Shown here: piece after piece, positions 15,951 to 48,470 of the stretch
Layout of the letters: each line of letters opens with the position of its first letter
How positions within the stretch are numbered: position 1 is the first letter of the stretch
Assembly (NCBI GenBank): GCA_008632985.1
Contig: QPGO01000035.1
Location: 607,899 to 659,351 of the forward strand
Length of the DNA stretch: 51,453 nucleotides
Source of the DNA: Psammoneis japonica
Taxonomy: Eukaryota
Direction of reading: 5' to 3'
Translations under genes and position numbers: made by a program
Notes under the pieces: generated by a model
What the model was told of the DNA's origin: nothing
Databases searched by the model: none
Seen by the model: only the letters and a program-made list of their open reading frames with translations

Positions 15951-15990
15951 TCCCTGCCCATTAAGTGCAAAAGTTACAAGGTCCTCAAAC

Positions 15991-25875: not shown

Positions 25876-26449
25876 TTCAGGTCCACTGCCCTGCAATTGT
25901 CAGGTTGCTCTAAAAATTGGCCTCTGTGCCATGATTCTCTCTCCTTCCTTCACCTGCCATTGCAGTCACCAGATCTCACATCCATCTCATGTGTGTTCAT
26001 GAACAGACTACATTCTGACCATTGCAATGGTTCCACATGAATCACTTTTGTGCTGTGACATGTTCTGAACACATTCTGTGTCAGAGTGTTCAAGCAAGGA
26101 TGCTCCCCCACAAACATCTCAACAAAACCACTGATGCACAAAATCTGACACAAATTTGTGCACGTCTTCAAACATGCCCCTCTGATCCAGGAATTTCTGC
26201 AAATGTTTGATTCCTGATGCACCTGGCAGATCATCTGCGCACCCCATGGTGTTTGCATGAAAAATCGTGACCACAACTTTTGGAGATTTCAAATCTCTTG
26301 GGACAGACCTTTGGCTTCCCTCCATTTTCTTTCTGTTGGTCAAAATTTCGACCTGCTCCACGTTGCTCTTGGTCTTGCAGTGCCTTGCAATTCTGATTCT
26401 GATTGTGTGAAGCAACTCCCTCTGAATTGCTCCGGTTTTCTGGCGCAAT

Positions 26450-28830: not shown

Positions 28831-29139
28831 TCTGATGAACTGGGGCACTTGGTTTTTGATGTGCATCAGTGACTTGCATGTTTTGACATTAGTTTTCTTT
28901 GACCTTGCACCACCAGCAAAGATCATGGACTCCAGAGCTGCACACACAGGTGGCACACCCAATGCCTTTTCTTCTGCCAGTGCTGATGCATTCATGGAGG
29001 ATGACATCATCCTTCCTCTTGCGGTTGGCAATCTCAAAAATGCTTCTGCATCCCTGGGGCTGGCAGCTCAGGATGTCACTGATGCAGCTCCAGTTTTTGT
29101 CTGACAACGTTGAGGAGTTTTACCCTGTTTTACCCCCAA

Positions 29140-31680: not shown

Positions 31681-32863
31681 ACTGCTCTGCTCTCATCTGT
31701 TCTCCGAACTGCTGCCAGCCCCTGTGGAGACCCTGCAGTGCTTGGGACAGCTTGCACAAGATGCACCCACCATTTCAAATTCACCAAGGATGTGAAGTGG
31801 GATGTGGATGACCCGGAAATGCTTGTGGAGAAGCTCTTGGAGCATCATTGCCAACTGCAACTCACCATGCATGCCATGCATGTTGCAGAAGGGACTTCCA
31901 TTTTTTGTGAGAAACAAAAAGCCAACACCACATTTGCCTGTGCAAAGGATGTCATGTCATTCATCAAGTTGTTTGGACGCTGCCGCGACTGTTGGCATGA
32001 CCACTCTGTGGACACTGAGTTGAGAAAGTTGTTCCAAGACACAAAGAAGGAAATCCAGTGATGCAATGAAGCTCCTGAGTGTCGCAAAGGTTTTGGCTCC
32101 AAGATGCTCCAAGAATCTAAGGAGCAGGCTAACACTGTCTCTGCTTCCAACCCGGATGGGCTGCTCTGCGCCATTTCTGATTGGCACCAAGTGCGCCCAT
32201 TCTGTGGTGCCTGTCTCCAAGAGTGGGCACAGACAAAGAGCAGATCTGACCCAGCTCGTCCGGCAATTGATTCCCAAGGTGGCACCCAAACTTGGCATCT
32301 CAATGACATTGAGGTCAAAACTGACAACTGCCAATGCACCTGAGGGGCACCGACATCTTGTCAGTGCCCGTCTCTTTGATCTCCAAGATGTGGGTCATGT
32401 GGCTCACCCAAAAAAATGAGGACAACGGTGAGGAGAAACTTTTTACTCTGAACCTCCAGCAAGACAGGCTTGACTTGGTCAAACCAACACACCATGTCAT
32501 TGAGTGGTTTGTCTGCATCCATGGCACAAAGATGATGCCACTGCCCCTCTGTCCATTTACAAAAAAGCAGGTGACAAGGCAAAGCTGATCACCTCTGTGG
32601 AAATTGAGGATGACGTGCATGAAGTTGCCTCAAAAATCTGTCGCCTGGACCCTGTTGAGGATGCAGAAGCACTTTTGCACTGGTCAGCCCACTCTCTCCA
32701 TGTTGGAGATTGTGTGTTGCTCCACCAAATGAACCTTGGTGCACAGTCTGTCCAATGGCTGTTGCAATGGAGGATTTGTGGTTTGCCTCAGGAACTCTGC
32801 TCTCTTGGCAGACCACCAGTGCAGAGCTCTTGACTGCTCTGCAGCCATGCCCCACCTCTTGTA
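31680..32863 (+). pseudogene. Ngaro tyrosine recombinase remnant
   Basis: CGACLQEWAQ (catalytic Arg box, degenerate), WLTQKNEDNGE, and WSAHSLHVGDCVLLH...QWLLQWR (H-S-L-R-x-G box with R->H; LLRWxS box). Confidence 0.85.
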
Positions 32864-33216
32864 AGAAATTTTGAAAATTTCAAAATTTCTGTGACACCTC
32901 ATTTTGTGTGTGCCACATGTTGCATGTTTCATGTTCCTTTTTTCAAATTCGAACAAGTGCAATCTGGTTTGATTGTGTTGGTTTTCTCATGCTGTCACTT
33001 GCATCGGTTTTCACTGTGCCAATTTCTTTGAATGTTTTTTCTCCTGCACAGCACATTTCCCCATTTGGGGCCCATGCAATCCTGACCGTCCACCCTCTTG
33101 AGGGTGCTGACCTTCAGTTTAAATCCTGTTTTTTCTTTTTTTCTGGCTGGCCATGTTGCCTCTGATGACATGGGTGCATGCGCTCCACTTCATGCAATGC
33201 GTCAGCAGCCACATGG

Positions 33217-33336
33217 TCTGTTCACACAGTGTTGGGGAACAAAATGGATGGAACTAGATCTGCAGATTTGCTCCCTGTTTTCCAGCTGCTGTCCAGCAGC
33301 ACCACACGAATGCACATGCTCCACACATTGGACACA
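33217..33336 (+). repeat. Split direct repeat B1
   Basis: TCTGTTCAC.CAGTGTTGGGGAACAAAATGGA...CAGCAGCACCACACGAATG...GGACACA; matches 33689-33809. Confidence 0.9.
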
Positions 33337-33438: not shown

Positions 33439-33670
33439 GAGCCAAGACGGTGGGCCCAGCACAAGGAGAGGACACCTTTTGGGCGGCTGAGCTCTTGGAG
33501 GAGTCACTGCGCGACAGCAGCACCCTGCAGAAGGCAGACAGATGGACAACGATGAGAGGCCGCGGGCGGGCCACGCGCCCCAGTTTCCCTCATTGTTTTT
33601 GGCGGACTGCCAGCAACGATGGGATCAGTTGCATCCACCCGATGCGGTGTGGGCCGACAACGCTGAAAAT
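33439..33670 (+). repeat. Split direct repeat A2
   Basis: Direct copy of 25078-25297. Confidence 0.9.
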
Positions 33671-33688
33671 TCCCACCCAACCCAGACC

Positions 33689-33809
33689 TCTGTTCACTCA
33701 GTGTTGGGGAACAAAATGGACCGAACTGGATCTGTGGATTTGTTCCCTGTTTTCTAGCTGCTGTCTCAGCAGCACCACACGAATGTGTGTGCTCCATGCA
33801 CTGGACACA
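33689..33809 (+). repeat. Split direct repeat B2
   Basis: Direct copy of 33217-33336. Confidence 0.9.
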
Positions 33810-34109
33810 CAACACCGGCTGTCCAGCAGTTCCTCCCAGCCAGACAGAAGAAGAAGAGAAAAGGAAAAGGAAGGAAAAAATGAACATTGATGAAGGTTTG
33901 AAAGGGTGCGCTGCAGCACCGCAGTGCGTGCAGCAGTGAAGACGGACGTAGACAGGTGCAGACGCGCTGCGTCCTGATGCGTCAGGCACGTGGAATTTGG
34001 TGCGAAGTGTCGTGCGTTTGCGTGCGCAGAAGGATGTGGATCGCCAACGGCTGGAATAAAGCAGCACACCGCACAGCAGTCAGTGCAGCTCTGTCATAAC
34101 GGCGCTAGA

Positions 34110-35582
34110 ATGGCGGAGGACAACATCGTTGCGTCTGGCAAAGCAGAGGATGTAGCAGCTCCGGAAGTCATGGCAGAACTCACGGGCGCCGAAGGCGTGG
34201 CGGCAGCTGCCATGACTGCACTTGGCGCCGAGGGAAGTGCCGAGGGTGTGTCCGTCGAGTCCGAACGCGCAAGGATGTTGGAGAAGCCGGCGCAGCCCCA
34301 AACTGAAAAGAGGGAGAAAGCCATGCCGCCAGAGCCAACCTTTCAAATTTGTGGTTGGAATGAAGCACAGCAGCTGGGTTGCACCGCCGAGCAGCTCCCC
34401 AAGGCCGGTTGCAAGATCGAGTTGGTGGGTGATCAGGCCACCTTTGTGAAACCGGAGGTCCTGCCTTTTTGCAGCGGCAAAAGCGAGGAGGCAGCCAAGC
34501 CCGCGGCCAAAGTGGTCGTGAAAGCAACGGCGGAAGAGGAAGAAGAAGGAAAGCAATTTCCGGACCCCAACGATCCGTCATTCGACTTGTGGGACTGGGT
34601 GTTGCGGCACAAAAAATCCGACAATTTCCAGGAGTCCATGTGCCTGATGAAGGATGCGCCGAATGATCCCGACCTCTGGTTCCCCGCGCTGGGAGAACTG
34701 GGGTGCATCAGGAGCGACCCTGAAGCCGTCGCGAATGCTCACGGCGAACACTGCAAGTGGGTGTGGAGGGGCCGCACGGAAGTCGGCGAGAGGGGCATCC
34801 CAGACTCGACGCCGAAGAGCAACAAAGTGTTCAAGACCGCCGTCGAGGCTTTCGAAGCGGGGTGGTCGCTCGCACTGGTCTACCTCGTGAAGAGAGTAAG
34901 TGCAGAAGTGTGCACATTTGGATGAGGCGCCATGTCACTTCAACCTGCATTGTTTTGCCTCAAAAAGTCCGTTCGCTGTGCAGGCCCCAAGGAGGTGGAG
35001 GTGGGCGAGCCACGTGTGTCGCAACGGAGGGGCGCAGGCATTGGTTTTTTTGCTTTGCGCCAGTTCCAGAAAGGCAGCACGGTTGGAATCTACGTGGGCC
35101 CCAGGGTGCCCGGTACGACGAGGAGCCATTCGTGGCATGACCACGACAGCAAGTTTGGAGAAGACCACAGCGTGTGCTGCTCCACCATCCGTGACAGCGA
35201 GGGCCACTGCGTCACAGTGGAGCCAAAACCGCTTGATTTTAGCGGTCCAGGGAACAAGAATTCCCATCCACTCTACCTCGGAATGCACTGCGTGAACGAT
35301 GCCACCGAGTCGTTCAAGGACAAGAAGAAGATCAAGGCAAGCCAACACGCAGACAACAACTGCGAGTTCTGCAACGACGGGTGCTTGGTGGTCACGAAGC
35401 GAATCATGCCCGGGGAGGAATTTCTCTCCAGACACAACTTGGACGAATCGGAGAAGAAGAAGAAGAAGAGGAAGGCGACGTCGGGTGCCATGAATCGGAA
35501 GAAGAAATCGTGTCTACTCCCCAAGTTGGGGGGGAGAAGCTCTGCGTCTGGCAAAACGTTTGCCGTGCAGTGTGCTCTGTAA
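34110..35582 (+). CDS. SET-domain protein (two exons 34110-34895 and 34968-35582), TpA-mutated and probably inactivated
   Basis: Removing a 72-nt GTAAGT...AAAG intron (34896-34967) joins YLVKR|SVR in frame. SET motifs: GAGIGFFALRQFQKGSTVGIYVG, YLGMHCVND, NCEF.NDG.LVVTKRIMPGEEFLSRHN, where the terminal Tyr position is now His. A basic NLS-like tail follows. Confidence 0.8.
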
Positions 35583-35680
35583 ATTAGTGGCACAGTGTGT
35601 TGGTGTTTTTCAGCGAAACTGTGGCATTAGTTGGAAAGGCGCAGCCCCAGTTGTGGTTCGAAAAATGGGAACGAGGAAGA

Positions 35681-35808
35681 ACAGAAAGTCAGCAAATTTG
35701 CGCAAATCTGGCAAATTGGCAGGCACCTGCACAGTCGCCTGAGTACAGAAAGTCAGCAAATTTACGCAAATTTAGCAAGTTATTTTTGCACTGTCACAGT
35801 CGCCTGAG
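35681..35808. repeat. Two tandem ~64-bp copies between the convergent SET and TET/JBP-like genes
   Basis: ACAGAAAGTCAGCAAATTT(G/A)CGCAAAT...CACAGTCGCCTGAG at 35681 and 35745. Confidence 0.9.
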
Positions 35809-37227
35809 AATGGTCTCTTCCTCTAGAGAAAGGGGGATTGAATTGTTGTTCTTGCCCACCACAGCACTCTTCAGGTGGAGAGACACGCAGAAGAACTCGT
35901 CGTTTGAGTTTGTCCTGCTGGAGATGCAGTGGCACTTGGTGGGGTTAAAAATGATGACATCACCAAGCCGGAGTGCAACGGAGATGCCTTCGGCAGGGAA
36001 GCAGAAGTGTGCCACAATCCCGTCATTCATGGTGTGGCTGCCGGACGGAGAGACTCCCACCACGGTGACCACTGACAGGAAGAAGTCCTGGTCCCTGTGG
36101 GCGTTGAGGAAGACATTGCGCCCAGCCGCCAGAGAGGAGAAAATGCCATCTGACTGCACCAGGGATTTCCAGTTGTGAAACTTTTTGACACGAGCGATGC
36201 CCTTGAGGATGGCACAGTCCACGTGCTCATTGACAAGGTGCTCCATGCGTGAAAGAAGTCTGGCGAGGTGGTGAGTGTGTTGGTCGGCCATGCCAGGCTG
36301 CTTGCAAGAAATTCGAGCGTCTCTCGTGGCAGCCAGGCCAATCATGGAACACTTGCTCCTGTCCGTCTCCATGAAGGTAACGCGTTGTTTGCTGCGCACG
36401 GTGGACTGGGTGGTGCAGCATTCTAGTGCTTCGAGCGCTCGGCACTGAGCAACTAGTTCTGCTGGGTTGGGGGAGCTGAACACCACAGCAGAACGCGGCA
36501 GCAGGGTGCAGGTGTTGTCGCAGCGGCAACCGTCCAAGCCAAAGAAAGGCTTCAGATCGAGCACAGGGTCACAGACGACCAGAGGAGCCAATTCGGCAAA
36601 GTCAATGTCAGCAAGACAAGGTGGTGCAGGCTGAGTGTAGTCGCCGTTGTAAACTAGAGTGCGGTCAGCTACACAGTGCATGGAGAGACTCTCAGTGGCG
36701 CACGGTGCAAGTGGAACGAGGTGAGCAATCTTGGATGTTTTCCCACTGGCGCGGCTGCGGATTCGCCTGCGGCTGCGGTGGGCCTTGCGAAGTGGCGGTT
36801 GAGCCCTCAACACGTTCTCGTGCATCCTGGTGTGCATTGACGATGCGGTGTTCGCAGAGAACGTGTGTGCGAACTTGCTGGCAAATGTTCCGCTGCTTGA
36901 CACTGTCACTGTCGTCTCAACAGTGCCCAAAGCAGAACTCTGTCGACAGGGACCGGCGGACTCCAGGGGAGTGGGGTCAAAACCCAATCGAGAGATGTGT
37001 CTGCTTTCCATTGCCTCAAGAGCACCCAAAGCAAAACTCTGTTGACAGGGACCAGCGGACTCCAGGGGAGTGGGGTCGAAACCCAATCGCGAGAAGTGTT
37101 TGCTTGTTGTCGGGCTGCGAGCTGCACGTCCCAAACCCCCACACTGTCGAGACCGGCTGCAACTCAATCGCGACAAGTGCTTGTCGTTGGTGGGACGACG
37201 CAGCGAGGCACGAGGTGGTTGCGACAT
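35794..37227 (-). CDS. 2-oxoglutarate/Fe(II) dioxygenase, TET/JBP-like; TpA-mutated
   Basis: C-terminal DSBH pattern: IFSSLAAGRNVFLNAHRDQDF (HxD at 36091-36099), HFCFPAEGISVALRLGDVIIFNPTKCHCISSR (distal His at 35929-35931), CVSLHLKS. The start codon is uncertain. Confidence 0.75.
   Translation of the reverse strand: MSQPPRASLRRPTNDKHLSRLSCSRSRQCGGLGRAARSPTTSKHFSRLGFDPTPLESAGPCQQSFALGALEAMESRHISRLGFDPTPLESAGPCRQSSALGTVETTVTVSSSGTFASKFAHTFSANTASSMHTRMHENVLRAQPPLRKAHRSRRRIRSRASGKTSKIAHLVPLAPCATESLSMHCVADRTLVYNGDYTQPAPPCLADIDFAELAPLVVCDPVLDLKPFFGLDGCRCDNTCTLLPRSAVVFSSPNPAELVAQCRALEALECCTTQSTVRSKQRVTFMETDRSKCSMIGLAATRDARISCKQPGMADQHTHHLARLLSRMEHLVNEHVDCAILKGIARVKKFHNWKSLVQSDGIFSSLAAGRNVFLNAHRDQDFFLSVVTVVGVSPSGSHTMNDGIVAHFCFPAEGISVALRLGDVIIFNPTKCHCISSRTNSNDEFFCVSLHLKSAVVGKNNNSIPLSLEEETILRRL
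36926..37183. repeat. 99-bp (33-aa) tandem duplication plus a partial third copy in the dioxygenase N-terminus
   Basis: SRLGFDPTPLESAGPC(Q/R)QS occurs twice (units at 36926 and 37025); KHLSRL is a partial copy. Confidence 0.9.
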
Positions 37228-37674
37228 GGTGTGTCTCAATTTGAAATGTGTTTCAAAACATGATGACGGAAGTGTTGTCGCATTGTTTTTGTCTCCGCGG
37301 AGGGAGGATCATCCCACGGCAATCTCAGCGCGAGTTCTCGCGTAGAAGTGCGTCACGTGCCGTGCCAGCTCGTGCATTTGAATTACACGGACACACAAGT
37401 GCGGCAACGATGAGAAGCAGGCCGAGATTCAAAACAAATTTTGTCGCCCAAAGGCGTCTTGTCATTTCAACGTGTCTGCGTGTCTGTTTAAAATGACTTC
37501 ACGCGTTGCTCCATGCGCAGGTAGAGGTGGCACGCCGCATTTGAAAATTTCGCGCGCACAGAGGGCGCGACGGCAATTTTACGCATTCTGCACACGTCAC
37601 AGTTTGGCTTGGAAACGCGACATCTGGTCGAACCCGCTGCAAGCAAGGTTGATGTTGCCACAAGGTTGGGTGCG

Positions 37675-38544
37675 ATGAACCATCGTCACAGAAGTGTTGG
37701 GGAGTTTTGTCTTCAAACGGCTCCAGACTCCGCGTTCCAGAGCAGGCATGTCTCCGGAGACGGAAGCGGATCTTCACACGGCGGTGAAGTTGGCTTCGCT
37801 TTGAGCAGCGAAGTGTTTTTGAACGAATGCCTTCTTGGCGTGAATCACACCTGCGACACATCTGTCGACATGGGCGGGGGAGTTGCCGGACCCAGCATCG
37901 GGCTCAAGTTACTTCGTCGCCGTTGCACCATGGTGAGCATCAAGGCCGACCACGATCGTCACCAAGAGGCTGTACGTTGGGCTCATTGTGCTGGCCTTTG
38001 CTCGAACGGCGGGTTAGAGTTGATCAACAAGTCATTCTTGGACGAGAGGCTGGCTCCTTTGTGGAAAAAGAAAGGACTCAAGGTGTTCTTCAACAACTGC
38101 AACTCCCGCATGGTCGACGACAAGAACACACAGCAGAAGGCAGAGGCGATGCTTTCGAAGTTGTGTCGTGCTGGGACCGTGGTGGTGGCGCTAGATCCGC
38201 TGTTCACGTCGCACGCGGGAGAGTGGATGTGCGAGTCCTTCACGGCGGATTGCCATGATGGCGACTTTTTGTGGCACAGCGGAGACGTGAAACATCTCGT
38301 CTTCCACAAGTGCACCAAGAAAGAGGAGACTTCTCAGTCAACCAGCCAGCACATGCGACGTCCCACTCCGACACACTTGGAACGGAAGTGTTTGCCCGTC
38401 GCGAAACAGCCAATTTTACTTAAGAACTCAACTGAACTGTTTTTTTACTGTCGCTGCACTGGACGTCACACGCTAGTTACTCTACTCAATTCGCCATTGC
38501 TTCACGGTGACGACAAGTTGTCGTCGGAGATGGTGCACACTTGA
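37675..38544 (+). CDS. Class I SAM-dependent methyltransferase, DOT1 (H3K79 MTase)-like; TpA-mutated
   Basis: Ordered motifs match DOT1's YGE / VDLGSGVG / GxE / GDFL / FVNNF / GxxIVSxxP: SHGGEV, SVDMGGGVAG, VSIKAD, KSFLD, VFFNNCN, AGTVVVALDPLF. The C-terminus may be read-through after stop-codon loss. Confidence 0.65.
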   Translation: MNHRHRSVGEFCLQTAPDSAFQSRHVSGDGSGSSHGGEVGFALSSEVFLNECLLGVNHTCDTSVDMGGGVAGPSIGLKLLRRRCTMVSIKADHDRHQEAVRWAHCAGLCSNGGLELINKSFLDERLAPLWKKKGLKVFFNNCNSRMVDDKNTQQKAEAMLSKLCRAGTVVVALDPLFTSHAGEWMCESFTADCHDGDFLWHSGDVKHLVFHKCTKKEETSQSTSQHMRRPTPTHLERKCLPVAKQPILLKNSTELFFYCRCTGRHTLVTLLNSPLLHGDDKLSSEMVHT

Positions 38545-38630
38545 AGAGACAGAGGAAAGCTGAGTTGCAATCGACACTTAGTTTGCTGAACATTTGCAAA
38601 TTTACACTGTACCGGCAAAAAAAAAACAAC

Positions 38631-39503
38631 TCAGTCTTCGTCGCTGTCCTGAAGCACCAAGTCGTCATCGACGTTCAGGTCAACTTCGCAGTTGAGCTCG
38701 ACATCATCGTTGGCCTCTTCTCCAGCTTCTTCCACCGGAGCTCCAATGAGACGACAGAGTTCCACAGGCAACGACCCCTCGTAGAAGCAACTGTGAAGTG
38801 AGTTCTTGTTTTGGGCACACCAACCGATGTGAAACTGACCACCTTCCTTCTGAAGCTCGGCAAGCGCCGCCTCGTTGCCGATCACTTCGGACCAAACAGC
38901 ATCCTTCATCCAGAAGAAGTCGTCTTCAATGAAGACCTCGGTGTTGTTCTCAGGGTCATCGTTGAGCTGCTTCGCAATGTGCTTCCCGAGGCCGCGCACT
39001 TTAGCATCGGTTGGGACTTCTTCGAGGAAGATGAAGAAGAGATGCACGGCGCAGTTCTTGGCGTTCGTCTGCAACTCGCCTTCGTGAACCCACCTGCCAG
39101 CGCAAGGGTGGAATCCGACTTGAACCACCCACGGAGTCCTGCTGCGAAGGTTGTCAAACAGAACCTTCTCCAACCAAACATTGGCCAAAAGGGGATTCTT
39201 GGCTTGGAGACGAAAAACGACGCCTTTCTTGCGGCCGACAGTGACGGTGGCGCAGCACAGGAGGGCGTCCTCATCGGAATGGCTGCCATCGTCAGAACCG
39301 GCGGATTTGGAAAGCTTGAACCCGTGCTTGGCAAGGCGGTCTTCCGGTTTAAGGTCGTCGTCGGTCAAGCCGTTGGTCTTGCGGGGCGGACTTAGTTTCT
39401 TCAACAGAGCATCAGAAAACTTCGTCTTTGCCTTCTTCTGTTTGGTTTCAGCGACTTTGGCTTTCGCAGCTGGGGAGGTCGTTGTGTTTCTTTTGCGTGC
39501 CAT
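38631..39503 (-). CDS. Hypothetical protein (290 aa; basic N-terminal tail, globular core, acidic C-terminus)
   Basis: Uninterrupted, protein-like frame from MARKRNTT to LQDSDED*. No family recognised. Confidence 0.7.
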   Translation of the reverse strand: MARKRNTTTSPAAKAKVAETKQKKAKTKFSDALLKKLSPPRKTNGLTDDDLKPEDRLAKHGFKLSKSAGSDDGSHSDEDALLCCATVTVGRKKGVVFRLQAKNPLLANVWLEKVLFDNLRSRTPWVVQVGFHPCAGRWVHEGELQTNAKNCAVHLFFIFLEEVPTDAKVRGLGKHIAKQLNDDPENNTEVFIEDDFFWMKDAVWSEVIGNEAALAELQKEGGQFHIGWCAQNKNSLHSCFYEGSLPVELCRLIGAPVEEAGEEANDDVELNCEVDLNVDDDLVLQDSDED

Positions 39504-40046
39504 CAAATCAGTTGGAGAGAAATTGTGGGAACAAAAAGTGCGATCGTTCAGAAGTGCCAAGAAAGACCCAGCAGAGCTGCGTGCATCATGCCAAGGAGAA
39601 CTGGCAACATCAGCAACTAGATCCAAACACGTCGAACTGCAACAAGGCAACCTTCCAGGTGTCAGCACTTGCAAGTGGTGCATGGATTCAATTTGAACAA
39701 AACAGGTGCAAGGATCGGAGCACGCAAAGTCACACTGAGTTCACTGAAAATGCGTAAAATCACATGCAATTCCGTCCATGCTTCGTGTGTGTTTCAGCCG
39801 TCACTGCCGCGCGGCCATCGCGCATGAAATCTAGTCGCCAAACGGTCGACGCCATCGCTGTCACCACTGCACCGGCAGTTAGCTAAGGTGGGCCCATCAC
39901 CCATTTGGAGGATTCGCGCGCACTTTGGAAACACGAATGACGTCAATCGTGTTGCCATTGCCACATGACCAACTCAACTGCCCCGCCACTTGTTAAAGCG
40001 TGATTCTGCGGAATTTACGTAAAGCTGCGCCCACCACCAAGATTGC

Positions 40047-40150
40047 CGAAACAACTTGAACAAGATCCGAATCTTGCCCCATGGAATGTTCAGAGCAGAT
40101 GGTCGAAACAACTTGAACAAGATCCAAATCTCATCCCATGGGATGTTCAA
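40047..40150. repeat. 57-bp tandem duplication
   Basis: CGAAACAACTTGAACAAGATCC.AATCT...CCCATGG.ATGTTCA at 40047 and 40104 (KQLEQDPNLxPWxVQ twice). Confidence 0.9.
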
Positions 40151-40304
40151 CGTCGACGAAACTAAGCAGGACATCGCACGTCTGGCACGAAGAAGGACGT
40201 GGGAGGAACGCACACGTCACTCTTCCGTCGAGGTGAAAGAGGCACACTTTCGTCTCACTTTTTTGTGACAGAACCTTTGTGCAAAGGGAAACGAAAAGCA
40301 TCCA

Positions 40305-40631
40305 NNNNNNNNNNNNNNNNNNNNNNNNNNNNNNNNNNNNNNNNNNNNNNNNNNNNNNNNNNNNNNNNNNNNNNNNNNNNNNNNNNNNNNNNNNNNNNNN
40401 NNNNNNNNNNNNNNNNNNNNNNNNNNNNNNNNNNNNNNNNNNNNNNNNNNNNNNNNNNNNNNNNNNNNNNNNNNNNNNNNNNNNNNNNNNNNNNNNNNNN
40501 NNNNNNNNNNNNNNNNNNNNNNNNNNNNNNNNNNNNNNNNNNNNNNNNNNNNNNNNNNNNNNNNNNNNNNNNNNNNNNNNNNNNNNNNNNNNNNNNNNNN
40601 NNNNNNNNNNNNNNNNNNNNNNNNNNNNNNN
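40305..40631. other. Assembly gap
   Basis: Run of N. Confidence 1.
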
Positions 40632-40960
40632 GCAGCTCTCACAGAGACCTGATCGCACAGGTTGTGAGAACACGACACAATGCTGCGGTGATCGGGTGGC
40701 ACCGACGCAGTTCGTCAAGCAACTGATTGACTCGGCTGCGGTGACTGGACAGCGCCAGTCGCAGTGCTCACAGCGACCTGATTGCACAGGCTGTGAGAAG
40801 ACGACACAGTGCTGCGGTGAACGGATGGCACCGATGCGGTTCGTTGATCAACTGGACAGAACCACTGCGGTGACTGGACGACACCAGTCGCAGTGCTGCA
40901 GGTGGTGAGAAAACACACATCACTGTGGTGATTGGATGGCACCGATCGCAGCTTCATGGT
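40632..40960. repeat. 129-bp tandem repeat array (two full copies plus a partial one) abutting the gap
   Basis: CTCACAG.GACCTGAT.GCACAGG.TGTGAGAA.ACGACACA.TGCTGCGGTGA at 40638 and 40767; partial copy ~40905-40955. Confidence 0.9.
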
Positions 40961-41039
40961 GATCGCACTGAAAAAACAACCATTTTTGCTGAGTGGCTTC
41001 TTGAAATTTGTTGAGTTAAAGTGTCAGCTTAAATTAAAA

Positions 41040-44000
41040 ATGGACGAGGCCAACTCCCGTGTTTGCAACGCAATCAACAGAAAGTTTGAGATGCTTTGTC
41101 TACATGGAGATGGAGAATTTAGACCACACGCATGTTTGGTCTGTGATGTTCTGCTGAAACCTAGAGAAGTTTGCTGCTTGCCGCTCAAAACATTGGAATC
41201 AGCAAGAAACTTGCTCACCCCTTCAGACTGGAACAGCGCATCTGATCGTCTCAAGTCCTGCTGCACTGTAGAGCATGAAGATGCTGATTGGATCAAAGAC
41301 CTGCCACTTTCTCCCCACGCCCAATGCGCAGTGCAGGAAGACAGACGATGCGTCGACGGATTCACTTGCTGCAGCGAATGTCAAAGAAGCCTGGGAAGAG
41401 CCGTCATGCCAATGTGCGCAACAGCGAACAACTGCTGTTTCGGTGCCCCGCCGCATGAACTGTTGTCTCTAACCGAAGCCAGAATTGGCAATGCTCACAC
41501 CAGTGAAAACATGCGGACACTGCTTCAGCCACCTTGGCGGCAAACAGAAGAAGCTTCAGGGAAGTCTGACGTGCTACAAAGTCAAGATACAAAGCATCGT
41601 AAGAACTGTTGTGCACTTCGACGCACTGAATTTACATCAGAATGTGATTGCACTGATGACTGGAAAGATGACTCCGGAGCAAAGACAACTTGCGTGTTCA
41701 AAGAACAGAATTAGGACGCACTGCATGCCAAGGGCGATGGAATGGCTGTTGCACCACAACCAAGAGTGGGTGCACCAACAGACAAATCTAGACGAAGTCA
41801 GGCGTAATCTGCGGAATCCCGCACTTGTCGACAGCACCAGCAAAGAAGAAGGAGAAAATGCGAGTGTTGAGACCTCAGAGTCATTTCACATTTGCTTTCC
41901 TGATGGAACCATGTCTCCTGCGACCGGTGGTCAGCGCAACCTGGACTGCTTCAAAGATCTTGCACGAAGCTGCTGCCAACGGATTTGATTTAGAGGTGCA
42001 AGCACAGTTGTCTAAAGAATCTGCGAGTGATTTCAAAGGCAACAACTTCATTGACGCGTGTCTGCTGCAGTTTCCTTTTGGCAGAGGAGGAATCAATGAG
42101 ACGAGAATGAAGAAAGACGGAAGTCTTGCAGACAGCACCAACCTTGCACACTGTGCCGACCACCACGGATTTCCCAGCCTCACTTCCACGAGCAGCTCTT
42201 CGTGTTAACATGCTGCAACTTGACAATGAAGCAAAGGATGCTGCAGAGCGCAGGGTGGAAAGTCAGGGACAAGAATCAGGCTGCACAGTTTGCAAACGAA
42301 CTGACAGTGGACGATGTGGACAGAGCTGTTTGTGATCGCAACTTGGGCGAGAGAAGAGATTGTGGACTCGGGCACCACTTTTTGCGTGCACTCGACGTTG
42401 CATCTGCGTCTCTGCCACACAGNNNNNNNNNNNNNNNNNNNNNNNNNNNNNNNNNNNNNNNNNNNNNNNNNNNNNNNNNNNNNNNNNNNNNNNNNNNNNN
42501 NNNNNNNNNNNNNNNNNNNNNNNNNNNNNNNNNNNNNNNNNNNNNNNNNNNNNNNNNNNNNNNNNNNNNNNNNNNNNNNNNNNNNNNNNNNNNNNNNNNN
42601 NNNNNNNNNNNNNNNNNNNNNNNNNNNNNNNNNNNNNNNNNNNNNNNNNNNNNNNNNNNNNNNNNNNNNNNNNNNNNNNNNNNNNNNNNNNNNNNNNNNN
42701 NNNNNNNNNNNNNNNNNNNNNNNNNNNNNNNNNNNNNNNNNNNNNNNNNNNNNNNNNNNNNNNNNNNNNNNNNNNNNNNNNNNNNNNNNNNNNNNNNNNN
42801 NNNNNNNNNNNNNNNNNNNNNNNNNNNNNNNNNNNNNNNNNNNNNNNNNNNNNNNNNNNNNNNNNNNNNNNNNNNNNNNNNNNNNNNNNNNNNNNNNCTC
42901 ACAACAGTTCAGAAGATCTGCAGCACGGAATTAATCTGCAGCGAGGACTTCAGCACTAACGCGTTGCGTGAAGCATTCGATCATGACTGCACAGTGCCAA
43001 AAATGTGTCGCACCTCTCCAAAAGCAGCAGACGACCAACAGCTAAGAAACCTGAGGCACAAAGACGGCCAGCAGTCGAAGAACGGAATGTTTGCTTGTTG
43101 TCGTCACTGCACCAAGTGCTGGACAAACGTCGAGTTTGTAGAAAGCTTTTTACAGTCACGGCACCGTGCACCTGGCCTGACTCGCCATCCAGACAACCAT
43201 GCAAAGCGACCAAAAGCAATGTGTGCACAACACCAGCGAAGTGGTCCGCAAGGGACAACAGAGGCATGTGTGCCGGACGCAGCTTACAACCATCACATGC
43301 ACGTTACGAAGTCGTGTTTTCCCAAATGCGCAGAGTTGCGTAAAATGCGCAAAAAAACCCCACACGAGGAACTGGACGTGCTGTCAAGGAAACGGAAACG
43401 AGAGGAGCTCAAACTGGGTGACTGCCATCACAGGCAACCAGCTGCTTCGTGTCCAAATAATTTGGCAAGGAACGCAGATGACACTCAGATAAAGTGGTTC
43501 AGCTGGGATGGAACTTTTGCGTATCGGCACGTGAAGGAAGTTGTTCCGAAGAGGAGAAAGTGTGATGCTTTTCAAAACGTGTCGTGCCCTGCAATGAGCA
43601 GATCAAAACTGACATGCAACACAAACATTGCTTTGTTGATGCCTGGACCGTCTGCTCAATGCACGATTGAGCACATCCTAAAAGACACCCAGAAAGATGA
43701 CACTGCATCGTACGATGAAGTGCTTCGAACTACAAACAGGACAGCGACGGAATTGCGGAAACACGCATCTGATGCATCGGAAGCAATCAGATGTCTCACA
43801 TGGGGTGCTCACTCGCACAACAAGACGAACATCATTGGACCACCACTTGCGTCTTACACAACAAGGAATGGAAGCCATTTCATCGAATCTCATTTGACCG
43901 CATGGTGCCCCTTGAAAGACATTGTCAGCACACTAGAAAGAGACGAAGTGTCTGCGACTGTAGCCCATTTTGGCGACACACCGTTCTTCCAATGCCAGGC

Positions 44001-46687
44001 CTTGCACCACCTGTGTCGTCCAACAGCACTGGAGAATCTCAGTCCATTTGCGTTTTTCAGTGAATGCGAAGTTCTTCGCAACACAAGGAAAAACGAACAC
44101 GGCATGATGATGTTCGACAACAGAGCGCACAGGCACCCGTCTTGCAATTCAACGAAGAATGAGTTTCTTCAAGGTGTCAGACAGCGACAGCAACCGCGAT
44201 TGTCAAAAGCACTTCAGTGTGATTTTCCTGATGCAGCCAAGTTTGGCAGTTGCCTTGTGGATCCGCAGCAACCAACAACACTGGACAAAGAATTGTGCTG
44301 CAAGTTGGCATTGGCCTTGTTTGCGCCTTGCAGAACAATGACGGAACTCAAACCAATGACCCACACATGCCTGCGTGAATTCCAACTCTCCGCAGCAGCC
44401 GGTGTCATTGCAGAGGAAAACTTGAACTTCTTGCAGAACCTGCAGGATGCCAAGTCCAACTGCCTTCGTCTCAAAAGTGCATCTGACGATCTGCAAAGAA
44501 AGACGGAGCAATTTAGACCTGCTGACGTTGCGTTTGACTGTTGCGAAAGTGACGAGGAAGAAGGTCTTTCAGGCGCCGTTCAGGGTCAACTGCTGGATGC
44601 ACTCTTGGAAGAAATGGCAGAGCAGCCAGAAGACGATGACATTGGGTTGAGCGACCAAGCAGTTGTTCCTGCGCATTTGAGCGGCAAACGTGCAAGACAG
44701 AAAGGTTCACACATGGGTGGTTGCAAATGCTTGGCAGACATGCACACTGACCCACCAAACGAGGAAAGCCAGGTCAATGAACGACAACTTTTTGAGAATC
44801 TAGAGGGCGGCGATGACACCGACGAGGAAGACCAGAATGAAGGAGTGCAACAACACATCCACAGCAGACCACTGTCAAGAGACGACATTGTTCGAGTGAC
44901 ACTGACTAGAACGCAAAGAACAAGAAGGTCGTTTGAGGACATGACAGGTTTGGAAGAACACGTCGATGTACGTCAAGCAAACGGATCTGCAGCAAGTGTC
45001 GTAGACTGGGCTAGGAAAGCAAGACTGGACAGGCAACAGCAGCGTGCCTTTGAAATTCTAGCAGGAACCTTTGTGCTCACTTGCTGCCAAGACGCTCTTC
45101 AAGACGAGACGTCACGCAATGGACTCAACAGGAGAAATGGCAGACACGAATTCGCAACAAACCTTCGCCGATTGAAGAAACTCGTGGAAGTGCAAAGACG
45201 CAGAACGTTGCAACTTGTGTGTTTTTTACATGGTGCAGGTGGAAGTGGCAAATCAACCACAATGGACCTCGTCGTGGAATGCGGAAGAGAGCATTGCTCG
45301 CTTGTTGAGCAGCCGTTCACAACAAGCACAATCAGAGTGACTGCACTGACCGGAGTGGCTGCGACTGTTCTCAAAGGGGACACAATCCACCGAGTTGCAT
45401 GCCTCATGAGAAGAAAGCAAACAACCGAAGAGCAAATTGAAGCATGGTCAGACACGAGACTTTTGGTGGCAGACGAGATTTCTTTTGCAAGCAAGAGAGA
45501 ACTAGAAAAACTCCATGAGAATTTGACAGTGTTGAAGAGCGAATTGAGCAAGCCGTGCGGTGGCATGAACATTGTTTTCGCAGGTGACCTCAGGCAACTA
45601 GAACCAGTCGGAAAAGGAGTGAAACCACTGTGCAAAGATGCGTGTCCCGAGTTTCACGAGTGGATCAACTGCCACATGGAACTTCGTGGTGTGCACAGGT
45701 TTAAAGACGATCCATCATGGGGAAAACTGCTCAAGAGATTCCGCACTGGTGAGATTGCAGTTGACGATGTGGAGCACATCAACGAACGAGCAGTTCAGAA
45801 TGAAGATGATCTGCCCAGTGACCTCCGCTGTGCTGCGCACGCAAATAAGGACAGAGATGCAATTGACACTGGCCCATTCGAAAAAAGAGCAAAAACACTG
45901 CATAGAAGAGATGGAGACGTCCTTGACTCAATGTTGATTTTCAGTGACGACTTGCAGGTGCAGAATGGCACGAGACTCTGCCAACCATTTCCGGTTTGCA
46001 ACAGCTTCTGGAACAACTGTGGTGAAGGAGACGTTGTCATGCAATCAGGAAGAATGGATCCAGTCTTACGAATTTACAGAAGATGCAGAGTCATGACACC
46101 TTTCAACGAAAATGCAGCAAACGGTCAAGCAAACGGAACGCAAGCCACTGTTGACAAGGTCGTTCTCAAACCAGGACAGGAACCAAGACTGGTGACTTTA
46201 GACAACAACATTGGCATTCCTGCTGCTTGCCAGTCAGGTAGACCACGTTGCATTGGAACACTGCAACAAAAGCATCGACCCCGCGAAGTTTTTAGTTGAG
46301 CCAAAAACAAATGCTTTCAGGGCTTGCATCGCCAAGCCCAGCCCAATTTTAGAAGAAGGCGACAAACAAAGGCACACTTTCCAACTGAAGGCAACCCAGC
46401 TGCCGTTTGTCATCAACAATGCCACTGCAGGGCACAAACTGCAAGGGAGTGGAGTCCCGCAGTTGTTTGTACACTCTTGGAGCTACACTCAGAATTGGGT
46501 GCATGTTGTGCTCTCCAGAGTAAAGACCAGAGAAGGGCTGTTCATGCGAAAGCCACTGAGCAAGGACCTGCGAAAATGCAAGGTCCCAGAAGGCTACGAA
46601 GCCTTGATGAGACTCATGAAGGAGAGAAGCGCCACGCATTTTTCTCAGCAACAGCACGCAGAAACAATGTGTGCGCAAACAGATTAG
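41040..46687 (+). mobile_element. Helitron Rep/PIF1-helicase polyprotein, frameshifted and hypermutated
   Basis: N-terminal CxxC motifs and MPMCATANN..GAPPHELLSLTEA; LLQFPFGRGG; Rep-region HHMHVTKSCF, CNTNI, QCTIEHILK. PIF1 motifs: GAGGSGKST, ALTGVAATVLKGDTIH, ADEISF, GGMNIVFAGDLRQLEPV, HRFKDD, ANGT, TAGHKLQG, VVLSRV. Frameshifts near 41480, 41960, 42170 and 46230. Confidence 0.92.
42423..42897. other. Assembly gap (probably hides the Rep HUH motif)
   Basis: Run of N inside the Rep region. Confidence 1.
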
Positions 46688-46881
46688 GATGCTCAACCAC
46701 TGTGCAACTGTTTGGCGACCCCAACCGTAAAAATGCGGAAATTTCGTAAAATAAAATGTTTCGATTAGATCAGCACATTGCGCAGAAATCTACACATGCG
46801 TCACACAACGTCGAATGGATTTTAACCAACAAACCAAGAAACGCGAACGCAACCGTCACAGAAAAGCAGCAATGAGAAAAC

Positions 46882-47281
46882 ATGGATTTGCAACAACAAA
46901 CAAAGAAGGCAGACGAGCCAAAGAAAACTGGTGAGGACAAGAAAAAGGTGCAGACACGTGCGGAACTTCTTCAGTCATTGATGAATGAGGAAGACGAAGA
47001 GGAGATTACCTTGGAAGAAGCAAGAGCGGCGTTTGACCTTGCTTCGGGAAATTTTGATGTCACTTCTGCACTTGTGCAAGACAACACGACAGTGGACAGT
47101 CATCATGTGGAAACAACGGTCGCCCAAGGATGATTCAACCATGGAGGAGCTAAAGGCAGCATGTGCAGCGGCGATTCCACAGCGGTCGGGGAGATTTTTC
47201 ACCGAGGAGGAGATGGCGGAGCAGGAGAAGGAGCAAGCAAAGTCCCTTCAGAAGAAGCATGGCCAGAAAGAATGGAATTGA
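46882..47281 (+). pseudogene. Small acidic ORF fragment(s) downstream of the helicase
   Basis: MDLQQQTKK...TVAQG* followed by MEELKAACAAAIPQRSGRFFTEEE...; TpA-depleted. No family recognised. Confidence 0.4.
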
Positions 47282-47580
47282 GCAAATTGCAAATGACATT
47301 TGGCAAAGACAACCGCATCAATGCGCAAAATGCACACACATGGACTTTCACTTGAGCCGCCGCGGATTGAGTGTGGCCACAATGGAGGACCAACTGTTTG
47401 GCAAAGAAACTGCAACAATGCGTAAATTTCGCACATTTCCACACTCACTTAATCCAACGCAGCTTGCCTTGGACAACATCAACATGCACAACTGGACAAC
47501 ATCAANACAGCCTCATGAAACCTCACAGAAGACAGAATGGTCAGAAGCAAAACAACCAGCACCACGCTCTAACGCATGTT

Positions 47581-47624
47581 GGTCATGTCGCGTGGGTCGC
47601 GCAAAAGTGCGCACCGAAATGACC
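47581..47624. other. GC-rich hairpin, candidate Helitron 3' subterminal hairpin
   Basis: GGTCGCGCA-AAAG-TGCGCACC (47595-47615) is nested in GGTCAT...ATGACC. It sits where TpA depletion stops (TAATTAATT at ~47636). Confidence 0.5.
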
Positions 47625-47894
47625 GTCATGTGTTGTAATTAATTCGAACGCCCGGCGCAAAATGCAGCAAAATGATTGGTGCAGGCAATCGTCATGGCTC
47701 TATTTTCTGACAGTAGCGAGGGCGGCAATCCAAAATCTTTCGGTTTCAGACTTCGATCTAGAGAGTTCCACCTAAAAAAGAGGAGGAACCAATTTGTTTC
47801 CCGCCATATCACGCGCAAGTGGATGATGATTCGCGCGGAGCCTCACATCTCTCCACCCTCGCTCAGCCGCGCAAAGCCAGAAAATCAAACAACC

Positions 47895-48470
47895 ATGGCC
47901 ACTTGCGTTTGTAGTTTGAGCGGCGAGACGGGTTCTTCCGTATCAGGGGTGTTGAAACTTGTACAGTCAAGTGAAGATGCACCCACCACCATTGAAGGCG
48001 AGCTTCGAGGCTTGACACCGGGAAAGCACGGCATTACAGTCAATGTGTACGGCGACCTTTCTCAAGGCGCTACTACATGCGGAGAGATTTTCAACCCATT
48101 TGGTGAGAATTATATTGCGGTCTGTGCGAATCGTGCTTGTCTTCATCATTGTGTCGTAGCTTATGATCCTTTTGTGTTTTGTTTCTGAACAGGCAAATCA
48201 CACGGATCACCACAAGACGATCCGAGCAATCGCATGGTGGGTGATTTGGGAAACATTGACGCTGGATCGGATGGAAAGTGTGCCGTGTCGTTGTCGGATT
48301 CACTCGTGAAATTGTTGGGGCCCCATTCCGTCATTGGAAGGTCGATTGTCGTGTATACTTCTGCGGATGATGGTGGACGTGGCGGCCAACCGTCGTCACT
48401 TACAACCGGCAACACTGGAACACGAGTAGCTGCCGGTGTGATTGGAATTGCCGCAGCTGCGGCGCCATGA
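47895..48470 (+). CDS. Cu/Zn superoxide dismutase-fold protein lacking most metal ligands (exons 47895-48102 and 48193-48470; 161 aa)
   Basis: The 90-nt GTGAGA...AACAG intron restores FNPF-GKSHGSP...RMVGDLGNI. Also GLTPGKHG, LLGPHSVIGRSIVV, TTGNTGTRVAAGVIG. Dinucleotide content is normal. Confidence 0.92.

Follow-up and report, generated by a model that had tools for sequence, protein, structure and literature searches.

TpA depletion with CpG retention in a Helitron copy bearing a TET/JBP-like gene, beside repeats that lack both dinucleotides

Why does one transposable element in a stretch of Psammoneis japonica DNA lack TpA and keep CpG, beside repeats that have lost both? The window, i.e. 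the whole stretch of 51,453 nucleotides analysed here, had been described in an earlier note with two options: TpA mutation acts faster or earlier and the element, a Helitron, is younger, or the element, which encodes a TET/JBP-like enzyme, escaped CpG methylation. Of these, the younger Helitron fits all tests run and TET-mediated CpG escape is unsupported. The features concerned, with the evidence on which they are placed, are the following.

1324..5384, plus strand: Copia-type retrotransposon remnant (Pfam gag_pre-integrs and RVT_2, tblastn map)
7500..16400, unstranded: unclassified block, TpA o/e 0.07, CpG o/e 0.17 (composition)
16530..20363, minus strand: host-like type III polyketide synthase fused to an AMP-binding enzyme, ORF of 1,255 aa (baseline)
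22500..33300, unstranded: unclassified block, TpA o/e 0.08, CpG o/e 0.26 (composition), earlier labelled "Ngaro"
33500..47800, plus strand: TET-carrying Helitron copy, ~14 kb (composition, contig depth)
34926..35579, plus strand: SET-like ORF of 218 aa (sub-threshold Pfam match, unconfirmed)
35797..37308, minus strand: ORF of 504 aa with a TET/JBP-like 2OG-Fe(II) dioxygenase (Atlas lead, relatives, AlphaFold2, Foldseek)
36916..37105, unstranded: two 99-bp tandem units within the N-terminal part of the TET-like ORF
40950..46711, plus strand: RepHel (Rep + PIF1 helicase) pseudogene (Pfam, tblastn map)
47676..48400, plus strand: host Cu/Zn superoxide dismutase gene (baseline on the right)

Dinucleotides were compared with a host baseline of two host-gene blocks (7,636 dinucleotides) and with the three other TpA-poor blocks (1.5-5.3, 7.5-16.4 and 22.5-33.3 kb), hereafter the old blocks. 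TpA makes up 130 of the 13,324 dinucleotides in 33,500-47,630 (0.98%; N gaps at 40,305-40,631 and 42,423-42,897 left out), 289/7,636 in the host genes (3.78%; Fisher p=3e-42) and 118/23,500 in the old blocks together (0.50%). CpG, at 758/13,324 (5.69%), does not differ from the host genes (426/7,636, 5.58%; p=0.76), whereas the old blocks hold 308/23,500 (1.31%; p=3e-122); TpA loss is thus uncoupled from CpG loss, as had been claimed. In terms of o/e, TpA and CpG stand at 0.17 and 0.90 in 33.5-40.3 kb, at 0.18 and 0.77 in 40.6-47.6 kb, at 0.06-0.08 and 0.17-0.26 in the old blocks and at 0.56-0.58 and 0.92-0.98 in the host blocks, the polyketide synthase/AMP-binding gene being normal (0.56 and 0.92). 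These values agree with the earlier description of 33.9-47.6 kb as TpA-poor and CpG-rich and of Copia, 6.7-16 kb and "Ngaro" as lacking both; the example sequence quoted for the former is present at 34,500-34,533, with one letter wrong. A scan of 500-bp windows (99 evaluated; TpA-poor, o/e <0.35; CpG-poor, o/e <0.5) found 77 to be TpA-poor, and across these the CpG o/e histogram is bimodal, with 48 below 0.5 and 29 at 0.5 or more. Twenty-five of these 29 are all the windows evaluated within 33,501-47,500. CpG loss is nested in TpA loss, since none of the 22 windows with normal TpA is CpG-poor. The left CpG switch lies at ~33.4-33.5 kb and TpA is back to normal at ~47.63 kb.

Among the neighbours, the Copia label was confirmed by the two Pfam families listed; the remnant, which has lost both TpA and CpG, corresponds to positions 124-1320 of a polyprotein of 1,429 aa and is interrupted by 10 in-frame stops and 3 frame changes. 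In 7,500-16,400 Pfam gave no family, and the name Ngaro was not upheld for 22.5-33.3 kb, which gave no Pfam family at E 0.01 and no Atlas lead. The superoxide dismutase gene has a 90 nt GT..AG intron (48,102-48,191), and a contig of run X2 shows it spliced out.

The Helitron ends can be placed roughly, at 33.5-33.9 kb on the left and 47.63-47.8 kb on the right; a search for Helitron termini in the element found none. Summed contig depth in run X1, which is not copy number, goes from 85-380 (just 85-109 in 31.5-32.8 kb) to 1,800-4,800 over 33.5-48.1 kb and to 48-77 beyond, and 3,619 contig pieces of that run were placed on the stretch at 90-100% identity. These public contigs suggest a family of many copies that are 90-100% similar. 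RepHel, with Pfam matches to PIF1 (E 2.1e-14) and DUF6570 (E 1.3e-4), has 206 relatives, the closest at 47% identity; tblastn matches it to residues 9-478 and 667-1849 of a 1,849 aa relative (P0003), with 2-3 frame changes, the middle of the Rep part being hidden by an N gap. The 218 aa ORF matches Pfam SET at E 0.006 (17.4 bits; cut-off 22.4) and has no sequence relative in PDB. The 99-bp tandem units carry ~10 differences, 3 of them CpG vs TpG/CpA. That the element keeps long ORFs is correct inasmuch as six reach at least 200 aa, the longest 504 aa, against a mean of 1.9 such ORFs and a median longest of 242 aa in random sequences matched to the dinucleotide composition of 33.5-40.3 kb, but they are partly a product of stop loss: TAA and TAG are gone, and CGA has not given rise to new TGA stops.

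Both dinucleotide losses are true mutations. Cys or His occupies 12/18 conserved Tyr columns of the Helitron RepHel and 24/27 of Copia, while leave-one-out homologs (n=40 and 42) reach maximum Cys/His fractions of 0.07 and 0.10. Tyr content in the window's three transposable element proteins is 0.3-0.7%; 389 database relatives have medians of 3.3-3.7%, and none of them falls below 0.9%. Strands are affected alike (Copia, 13 Tyr->Cys vs 11 Tyr->His), and ATA/TAT is the preferred context of TpA loss. The Arg->Gln/Trp/His/Cys changes reported for Copia were recovered at 27/40 conserved Arg columns, stops included, as against 5/29 CpG-type changes in the Helitron (Fisher p=6e-5), the latter still above the control median of 0.02 (p=0.0016).

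Among run X1 pieces 166/192 changed places are transitions; places differing at 10% or more number 194 over 20 kb, of which 40 were displayed. Of the 22 best-supported differences in the element, 13 have CpG in all other copies and TpG or CpA here; these are 13 of the 14 such events outside the TpA type (p=1e-5 even with a threefold base bias). CpG is hence hypermutable in this copy, not exempt. Three of the 22 are clear private TpA losses and four are TG/CA alternatives, so much of the TpA loss may be common to the copies and older than their spread.

Age was approached through the residues that lie out of reach of both processes (W, F, C, H and Q), which are retained at 69/75 sites in the Helitron (control median 0.90) and, somewhat less fully, at 81/96 in Copia (control median 0.93), without a significant difference between the two (p=0.16). 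Frame-change counts are similar (2-3 in ~5.3 kb of RepHel, 3 in ~3.6 kb of Copia), and these age proxies are weak. A two-rate fit gave decays of 1.65 for Tyr and 0.16 for Arg in the Helitron and 1.68 for Arg in Copia, i.e. a Helitron/Copia age ratio of ~0.10. No single rate ratio accommodates both elements (10.3 vs 1.9), unless TpA in old elements sits at a floor with new TpA still arising. For Bigelowiella natans the accessible preprint text gives 211 mutations, 6,169 TpA and 3,132 generations (bioRxiv 10.64898/2026.01.13.699255), from which our own arithmetic yields ~1.1e-5 per TpA per generation, well in excess of what ordinary CpG decay would reach.

The explanation we favour, and consider fairly probable, is fast TpA editing combined with slow CpG decay on a younger Helitron family. 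Two separate mutational processes of very different speed would act in this genome on DNA that is foreign or repeated. The first would convert TpA to TpG or CpA, i.e. A->G on either strand, ATA/TAT first and near to completion; it would act on DNA, because the Helitron, a DNA transposon, is affected, and its enzyme may be an adenine deaminase, as proposed for B. natans in the accessible text of bioRxiv 10.64898/2026.01.13.699255. The second would convert CpG to TpG or CpA, symmetrically, in all sequence contexts and much more slowly, most likely by 5-methylcytosine deamination in presumably methylated repeats. The element at 33.5-47.8 kb would be one member of a younger TET-carrying Helitron family with many copies; from this member the first process would have taken ~60-80% of TpA, killing the RepHel and TET-like genes via Tyr->Cys/His and erasing TAA/TAG stops, the second having just begun (~15% of conserved Arg codons changed). 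Copia and the two unclassified blocks would have been exposed ~10x longer by the Arg measure and so have lost both dinucleotides. The proposal that TpA mutation is faster or earlier and the Helitron younger agrees with the nesting, the many similar copies, the immune residues at control level and the high B. natans rate. Class-specific targeting is possible, the blocks at 7.5-16.4 and 22.5-33.3 kb being unclassified. If this explanation is right, a Helitron beside older remnants places two repeat-directed mutation processes in time order.

The enzyme itself bears on the other option. Its TET/JBP-like domain forms the C-terminal 290 residues of the 504 aa ORF (35,797-36,666) and has 967 relatives at E<=0.001; Pfam Tet_JBP gave 0 matches for the window ORF and weak matches in 3/69 relatives. 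The AlphaFold2 model (pLDDT 93.2) has CcTet, CMD1, NgTet1 and TET2 as its best Foldseek matches, and the HxD...H metal-binding residues are intact (invariant H190/D194/D236/H246), so that fold and residues back the claim of an encoded TET/JBP-like enzyme. A metagenome contig (L001) with RepHel and then a TET-like gene is an independent example of the pairing and, as an unedited relative, a baseline (o/e TpA 0.40-0.60, CpG 0.67-1.0). In this copy, 3/3 conserved Tyr of the TET-like ORF have become His or Cys and 5/5 conserved Arg are unchanged (CpG-type change 0/5); the ORF is probably dead. It is nonetheless conceivable, if in our view unlikely, that such a dioxygenase strips or modifies 5mC on Helitron copies, perhaps aided by the SET-like protein, or that host methylation skips the class, and CpG retention would then be uninformative on age. 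A real gene with intact metal-binding residues leaves room for a past protective role, the recurrent pairing, the host-like CpG frequency and the age proxies that fail to separate Helitron from Copia fit as well, and fungal TET-carrying DNA transposons including Helitrons are, in the accessible part of PMC12730594, proposed to evade methylation-based silencing. Such protection is at odds with the 13/22 private CpG losses, the 5/29 changed Arg and the probable death of the ORF; there is no sign of an active Helitron copy, and age by itself accounts for the pattern. TET-mediated escape is unnecessary, with a partial or past effect possible.

We give an equally low probability to inherited TpA poverty. 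On this view a single master copy would have suffered most of the loss, trans-mobilisation or segmental duplication would then have multiplied it, leaving its copies TpA-poor by descent, and the CpG contrast would reflect one lineage's history and not two rates in place. The few TpA-type private differences (3 clear and 4 ambiguous of 22) favour this view, as do the 194 differing places, which would be fewer than expected if a few hundred TpA had been edited separately in each of dozens of copies; with 40 displayed, however, these do not fix the shared-edit count. Moreover, a RepHel with 12/18 conserved Tyr replaced cannot self-mobilise, the four TG-vs-CA alternatives between copies are the outcome expected when the same TpA is edited independently, and B. 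natans editing works in place on single-copy integrated DNA according to the accessible text of bioRxiv 10.64898/2026.01.13.699255. It is very improbable that a retrotransposon life-cycle process (e.g. cytosine editing of cDNA), to which a DNA transposon was never exposed, caused CpG loss in the old blocks: the sole classified CpG-poor element is indeed a Copia retrotransposon, but its Arg changes are strand-symmetric (14 G->A, Arg->His/Gln, vs 13 C->T, Arg->Cys/Trp/stop), which fits double-stranded DNA in place and not one cDNA strand, depletion is even over the four trinucleotide contexts (0.20-0.35 of host level), and the Helitron copy likewise carries CpG-type changes.

Fast TpA editing with slow CpG decay can be set beside known systems. 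RIP of Neurospora and relatives changes C to T at CpA and creates TpA; the likeness is that repeats are hypermutated by transitions at the DNA level and transposons are killed where they sit, the difference that here A->G destroys TpA. Methylated transposons lose CpG through 5-methylcytosine deamination, and the CpG->TpG/CpA loss found here is likewise symmetric, context-independent and confined to repeats, whose methylation we infer. ADAR-type A-to-I hyperediting of repeat RNA changes A to G with 5' U/T preferred, whereas here a DNA transposon is affected, on both strands and near saturation. The B. natans preprint discusses ADAR-type hyperediting and cites RIP in its Discussion; unlike those of RIP, its targets include single-copy DNA, as its accessible text states (bioRxiv 10.64898/2026.01.13.699255).

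Fungal TET/JBP-encoding DNA transposons include Helitron1 and Helitron2 families (PMC12730594), and as far as the accessible part of that paper goes they share with our element a TET/JBP-fold dioxygenase as passenger gene of a Helitron. On the other hand, our TET-like family is too divergent for the Pfam Tet_JBP model and the Helitron copy has been inactivated by TpA editing; for the Copia beside it, the relatives that bear a name are diatom and not fungal.

The TpA signature of the window matches the TpA-specific hypermutation of integrated viral DNA followed in B. natans mutation-accumulation lines (Mettrop et al., bioRxiv 10.64898/2026.01.13.699255, 2026). In the accessible text of that preprint, changes are exclusively TpA->TpG/CpA and limited to foreign or repeat DNA with host genes spared, reverse transcriptase and DDE domains are over-represented in TpA-poor clusters across the genome, and low-TpA predicted genes agree with the erased stops described here. 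The same text has no mention of CpG, Helitron, TET, trinucleotide, flanking or context; in the window, by comparison, TpA loss can be contrasted with CpG loss, the targets include a Helitron family and ATA/TAT is preferred.

The region from 33.5 to 47.6 kb, described in the earlier note as without TpA yet CpG-rich, does have this composition. TpA makes up 130/13,324 dinucleotides here; host genes have 289/7,636 (p = 3e-42), and the old blocks, those poor in both dinucleotides, 118/23,500. CpG was counted at 758/13,324, close to the host genes (426/7,636, p = 0.76) and far from the old blocks (308/23,500, p = 3e-122). The pattern is genuine, and its statistical significance is high. A CpG-rich example quoted from this region was located at 34,500-34,533, although one letter of the quotation was wrong.

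Dinucleotide composition of the blocks compared (o/e, observed over expected)
1.5-5.3, 7.5-16.4 and 22.5-33.3 kb, old blocks: TpA o/e 0.06-0.08, CpG o/e 0.17-0.26, TpG and CpA 1.6-1.9
33.5-40.3 kb: TpA o/e 0.17, CpG o/e 0.90
40.6-47.6 kb: TpA o/e 0.18, CpG o/e 0.77
16.5-20.4 kb, host block: type III polyketide synthase (PKS)/AMP-binding fusion
from 47.65 kb, host block: Cu/Zn SOD region
the two host-gene blocks: TpA o/e 0.56-0.58, CpG o/e 0.92-0.98

Among the 99 evaluated windows of 500 bp, 77 were TpA-poor, 48 of these being CpG-poor as well and 29 not, and none of the 22 with normal TpA was CpG-poor. As many as 25 of the 29 make up all evaluated windows within 33,501-47,500. This nesting of CpG loss within TpA loss agrees with a TpA-first order. 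TpG/CpA o/e reaches 1.3-1.9 in TpA-poor DNA with TpA o/e 0.06-0.18, and all TpA-poor stretches longer than 1.5 kb are transposon-like or unclassified DNA, none matching host genes. Positions 1-1,400 of the window are intermediate (TpA o/e 0.24, CpG o/e 0.62) and may be the Copia edge or an element of intermediate age. ApT is low too in 33,500-47,630 (o/e 0.68-0.75 vs 0.9-1.0 elsewhere), probably as a by-product of ATA->ACA and TAT->TGT changes.

The element filling this region, a Helitron, carries the following open frames.

Features of the Helitron
40,950-46,711, + strand: RepHel gene, aligned to residues 9-478 and 667-1849 of a 1,849 aa relative
35,797-37,308, strand opposite to RepHel and upstream of it: TET-like ORF, 504 aa, the last 290 residues being the family domain
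34,926-35,579: SET-like ORF, below threshold and a candidate only

The RepHel gene contains 2-3 frame changes, and an N gap spans its missing middle. It matches PIF1 at E 2.1e-14, and the 1,849 aa relative bears PF14214, PF05970 and PF20209; the gene is a fusion of a Rep domain with a PIF1-type helicase, the middle of Rep, where the catalytic Tyr and the HUH motif would be expected, lying within the N gap. Helitron termini have the form 5'-TC ... hairpin-CTRR-3' and are inserted between A and T. The 3' hairpin or terminus was searched for in 46.7-47.75 kb with no convincing candidate, and the element ends were placed by contig depth and composition alone.

That the Helitron encodes a TET/JBP-like enzyme, as proposed in the earlier note, is borne out by structure prediction. 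The domain was modelled by AlphaFold2 with a mean pLDDT of 93.2, and the Foldseek matches, listed to rank 25, were all CcTet, CMD1, NgTet1 or TET2 (best E 7e-7, TM about 0.5). It has 967 family representatives at E<=0.001; H190, D194, D236 and H246 are invariant over 69 sequences and D192 is conserved in at least 90%. Pfam PF12851 (Tet_JBP) gave no match to the window ORF and weak matches in 3/69 relatives (best E 0.0023), and a PDB sequence search with the ORF gave no match. The ORF is thus predicted to adopt a TET/JBP-like fold, a double-stranded beta-helix with an HxD...H site, without being a Pfam-certified member. PDB sequence searches also returned nothing for 34,926-35,579, 37,525-38,541 and 38,634-39,740.

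A three-sequence alignment scan of metagenomes yielded one locus from 140 pattern matches, contig L001, the only metagenome locus recovered with the TET-like family. It contains a RepHel ORF (2,081-7,511) and after it, on the same strand, a TET-like gene (8,177-10,087), and its composition is ordinary (TpA o/e 0.40-0.60, CpG o/e 0.67-1.0). Since both genes occur on L001 the pairing recurs, and the contig serves as an unedited baseline. Its TET-like protein has 626 aa with a repetitive N-terminal extension.

To determine the direction of mutation, the translated Helitron was aligned with 40 database homologs and the translated Copia with 42; a column was scored if at least 70% of the homologs agreed there, and every homolog was left out once to act as a control. 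Conserved Tyr had become Cys or His at 12/18 positions in the Helitron and 24/27 in Copia (controls: median 0.00, maximum 0.07 and 0.10). Such changes are TAY->TGY or TAY->CAY, exactly the TpA type. Conserved Arg had become His, Cys, Gln, Trp or stop at 5/29 and 27/40 positions (p = 6e-5 between elements), with control medians of 0.02 for the Helitron and 0.00 for Copia and maxima of 0.15 and 0.06. The TET-like ORF by itself has His or Cys at 3/3 conserved Tyr and retains 5/5 conserved Arg. Tyr accounts for 0.3-0.7% of residues in the three window proteins, whereas their families have medians of 3.3-3.7% and all 389 relatives have at least 0.9%. In Copia the changes are strand-symmetric for both TpA (Tyr->Cys 13, Tyr->His 11) and CpG (Arg G->A 14, Arg C->T 13), which points to changes made directly in double-stranded DNA in place, and away from an RNA or cDNA intermediate. 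All CpG trinucleotide contexts in the old blocks stand at 0.20-0.35 of host level, and the symmetric CpG->TpG/CpA change in repeats expected of 5mC deamination is present. Judged from these alignments, both dinucleotide losses are mutations of clear direction.

The TpA that survive are unevenly distributed over sequence contexts (context tables vs host: p = 5e-16 for the Helitron and p = 6e-11 for the old blocks). Relative to host frequency, ATA/TAT is left at 0.03 in the Helitron and 0.05 in the old blocks, GTA/TAC at 0.27 and 0.10, CTA/TAG at 0.42 and 0.14, and TAA/TTA at 0.37 and 0.26. Against the unedited L001 the Helitron retains ATA/TAT at 0.06 and the other contexts at 0.36-0.52. The near-loss of ATA/TAT means that the process favours TpA with a 5' A, equivalent to a 3' T, and hints at a target motif longer than the dinucleotide. 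As to which strand of a TpA is edited, no rule emerged from the Tyr codons of the Helitron (8 Cys, 4 His).

Contigs of X1, a public sequencing run, were aligned over 31.5-51.5 kb, giving 3,619 pieces: 1,143 at 99% identity or above, 1,283 at 95-99% and 1,193 at 90-95%. Summed depth, which is not a copy number, is 1,800-4,800 over 33.5 to about 47.8 kb, 48-77 over the right-hand host genes and 85-109 at 31.5-32.8 kb. These contigs suggest that the Helitron family has many copies that have diverged little. The edges of high depth match those of the CpG-rich, TpA-poor composition to within a few hundred bases, hence the mutational regime is the element's own and not that of its chromosomal neighbourhood. 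At the left edge, direct repeats are found at 33,217-33,336 and 33,689-33,809 (87% identity), and one X1 contig jumps over 33,261-33,736; a further pair, 25,078-25,297 and 33,439-33,670 (77% identity), is common to an older block and this edge. Copies differ here mainly by TG/CA/CG alternatives. On the right, TpA is back at about 47,630, X1 depth stays high until about 47.8 kb and a 2-base deletion variant at 47,774 occurs in about half of the X1 depth; what lies between 47,630 and 47,800 may be the element's true end or a second, abutting repeat.

Differences between the X1 contigs and the window are transitions at 166/192 changed places. Of the 194 places that differ, 40 were listed; at each of these 40 every aligned contig departs from the window, and inside the element they form 22 events.

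Private differences of the window copy inside the element
13 events: CpG in other copies, TpG/CpA in the window
1 event: CpG in the window, TpG in other copies
3 events: TpA in other copies, TG/CA in the window
4 events: TG in the window vs CA in others, or the opposite
1 event: transversion

CpG accounts for 13/14 of the non-TpA-type events though it makes up 11.6% of bases (p = 8e-12; p = 1e-5 with a threefold bias allowed), and this excess indicates CpG hypermutability at work on the window copy. Between two 99-bp tandem units within the TET-like ORF, 3 of about 10 differences are of the CpG type.

Long ORFs, which the earlier note had taken as retained, have to be read against composition. 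Stop triplets on both strands number 76 per kb in the right host block vs 43-51 per kb in the element, nearly all TGA, and random sequences of equal dinucleotide content readily yield ORFs of 200-350 aa. Just two frames, RepHel with 1,133 aa outside the N gap and the TET-like one with 504 aa, are longer than in all 200 simulations. Both frames carry Tyr->Cys/His changes at conserved sites, so open frames are not to be equated with live genes, and annotators should be aware that dead, TA-poor transposons still have long open frames.

The Copia label is correct (1,324-5,384), the nearest named relatives being diatom elements at about 50% identity, whereas Ngaro for 22.5-33.3 kb found no support from Pfam or Atlas. 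For 7.5-16.4 and 22.5-33.3 kb, Pfam was applied to stop-free ORFs of at least 100 aa and, with the E limit relaxed to 1, to the 22 longest ORFs; neither run identified a credible family, and an Atlas search with a 409 aa ORF from these blocks gave no lead (best score 0.86). An intron-less ORF of 1,255 aa at 16,530-20,363 (- strand) combines type III PKS (chalcone/stilbene synthase domains) with an AMP-binding enzyme, an unusual architecture of host-like composition. In a second public run, X2, a contig joins 48,101 to 48,192, by which a 90 nt GT..AG intron (48,102-48,191) of the Cu/Zn SOD gene is spliced out; X2, labelled 'DNA?', therefore probably holds transcripts. Almost no X2 contigs cover the Helitron.

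With CpG loss nested inside TpA loss, the first option of the earlier note, faster or earlier TpA mutation and a younger Helitron, provides the best explanation: two independent repeat-directed mutation processes of unequal speed probably acted on elements of unequal age, a reading we hold with moderate confidence. Control-corrected decay is 1.65 for Tyr (TpA) and 0.16 for Arg (CpG) in the Helitron, and 3.18 and 1.68 in Copia. If CpG decay, which as 5mC deamination would act on repeats, is taken as the slower clock, the Helitron copy would be about a tenth as old as Copia, where TpA would be at a floor and replenished by ordinary C->T changes that make new TpA. Residues immune to both processes are kept at 69/75 in the Helitron (control level) and 81/96 in Copia (slightly lower), a trend in the direction predicted by the age model that is not significant (p = 0.16). 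A weak point of this model is that frame-change counts are alike in both elements; another is that part of the TpA loss may be common to the copies, as the listed differences cover 40 of 194. Copia breaks off near residue 1320 of 1429, and self-BLAST of the window gave four repeat pairs, none flanking Copia, which leaves it without an LTR pair for dating. In such genomes TpA and CpG together would form a two-speed clock for repeat dating.

Escape from CpG methylation through the TET-like enzyme, an idea put forward for fungal transposons in PMC12730594, is not needed to account for the pattern, with which it is still compatible; the 13 private CpG losses count against full escape, as CpG hypermutability acts on this very copy. 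Whether TET enzymes carried by transposons shield the elements that bear them could be tested cleanly on this window. We consider improbable a counter-defence through the Helitron-borne TET/JBP-like enzyme, possibly with the SET-like ORF, by which active copies would strip methyl marks and delay one host mutator, the mark being one that could be 5mC at CpG or an N6-methyladenine intermediate at TpA (CcTet, the nearest solved relative, acts on 6mA too); if true, the TpA/CpG uncoupling would record a transposon-host arms race and not age alone.

Fungal RIP changes C->T at CpA so that TpA is gained; unlike it, the window loses TpA and gains CpA. The TpA process is already known from one 2026 preprint (bioRxiv 10.64898/2026.01.13.699255), in the main text of which CpG, Helitron, TET, trinucleotide, flanking and context do not occur. 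According to that text, 231/302 nuclear point mutations in mutation-accumulation lines of Bigelowiella natans fell in integrated giant-virus and virophage regions and were there nearly all A->G/T->C, such transitions being all on TpA; genome-wide there are 124 TpA-poor clusters and 324 predicted genes low in TpA, with reverse transcriptase and DDE domains over-represented, and the authors suggest that the enzyme is an ADAT2-like deaminase. For some lines, de novo rates are given as about 1e-7 to 1e-6 per site and generation; the preprint's numbers work out to about 1.1e-5 per TpA and generation, which corresponds to a half-life of about 63,000 generations and is far faster than any ordinary CpG decay. 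TET-carrying Helitrons are known from fungi (PMC12730594). Literature searches found neither methylation data for chlorarachniophytes nor a publication setting TpA loss against CpG loss. The window resembles B. natans in that A->G/T->C is restricted to TpA, TpA loss goes with TpG and CpA gain, and foreign or repeat DNA is targeted and host genes are spared (host TpA o/e 0.56-0.58). New are the ordering of the TpA process before CpG decay, the ATA/TAT preference and a TET-Helitron target outside the described fungal cases; to the known system the window adds transposon families struck by TpA hypermutation, in which ATA/TAT is lost first and a slower CpG decay comes after.
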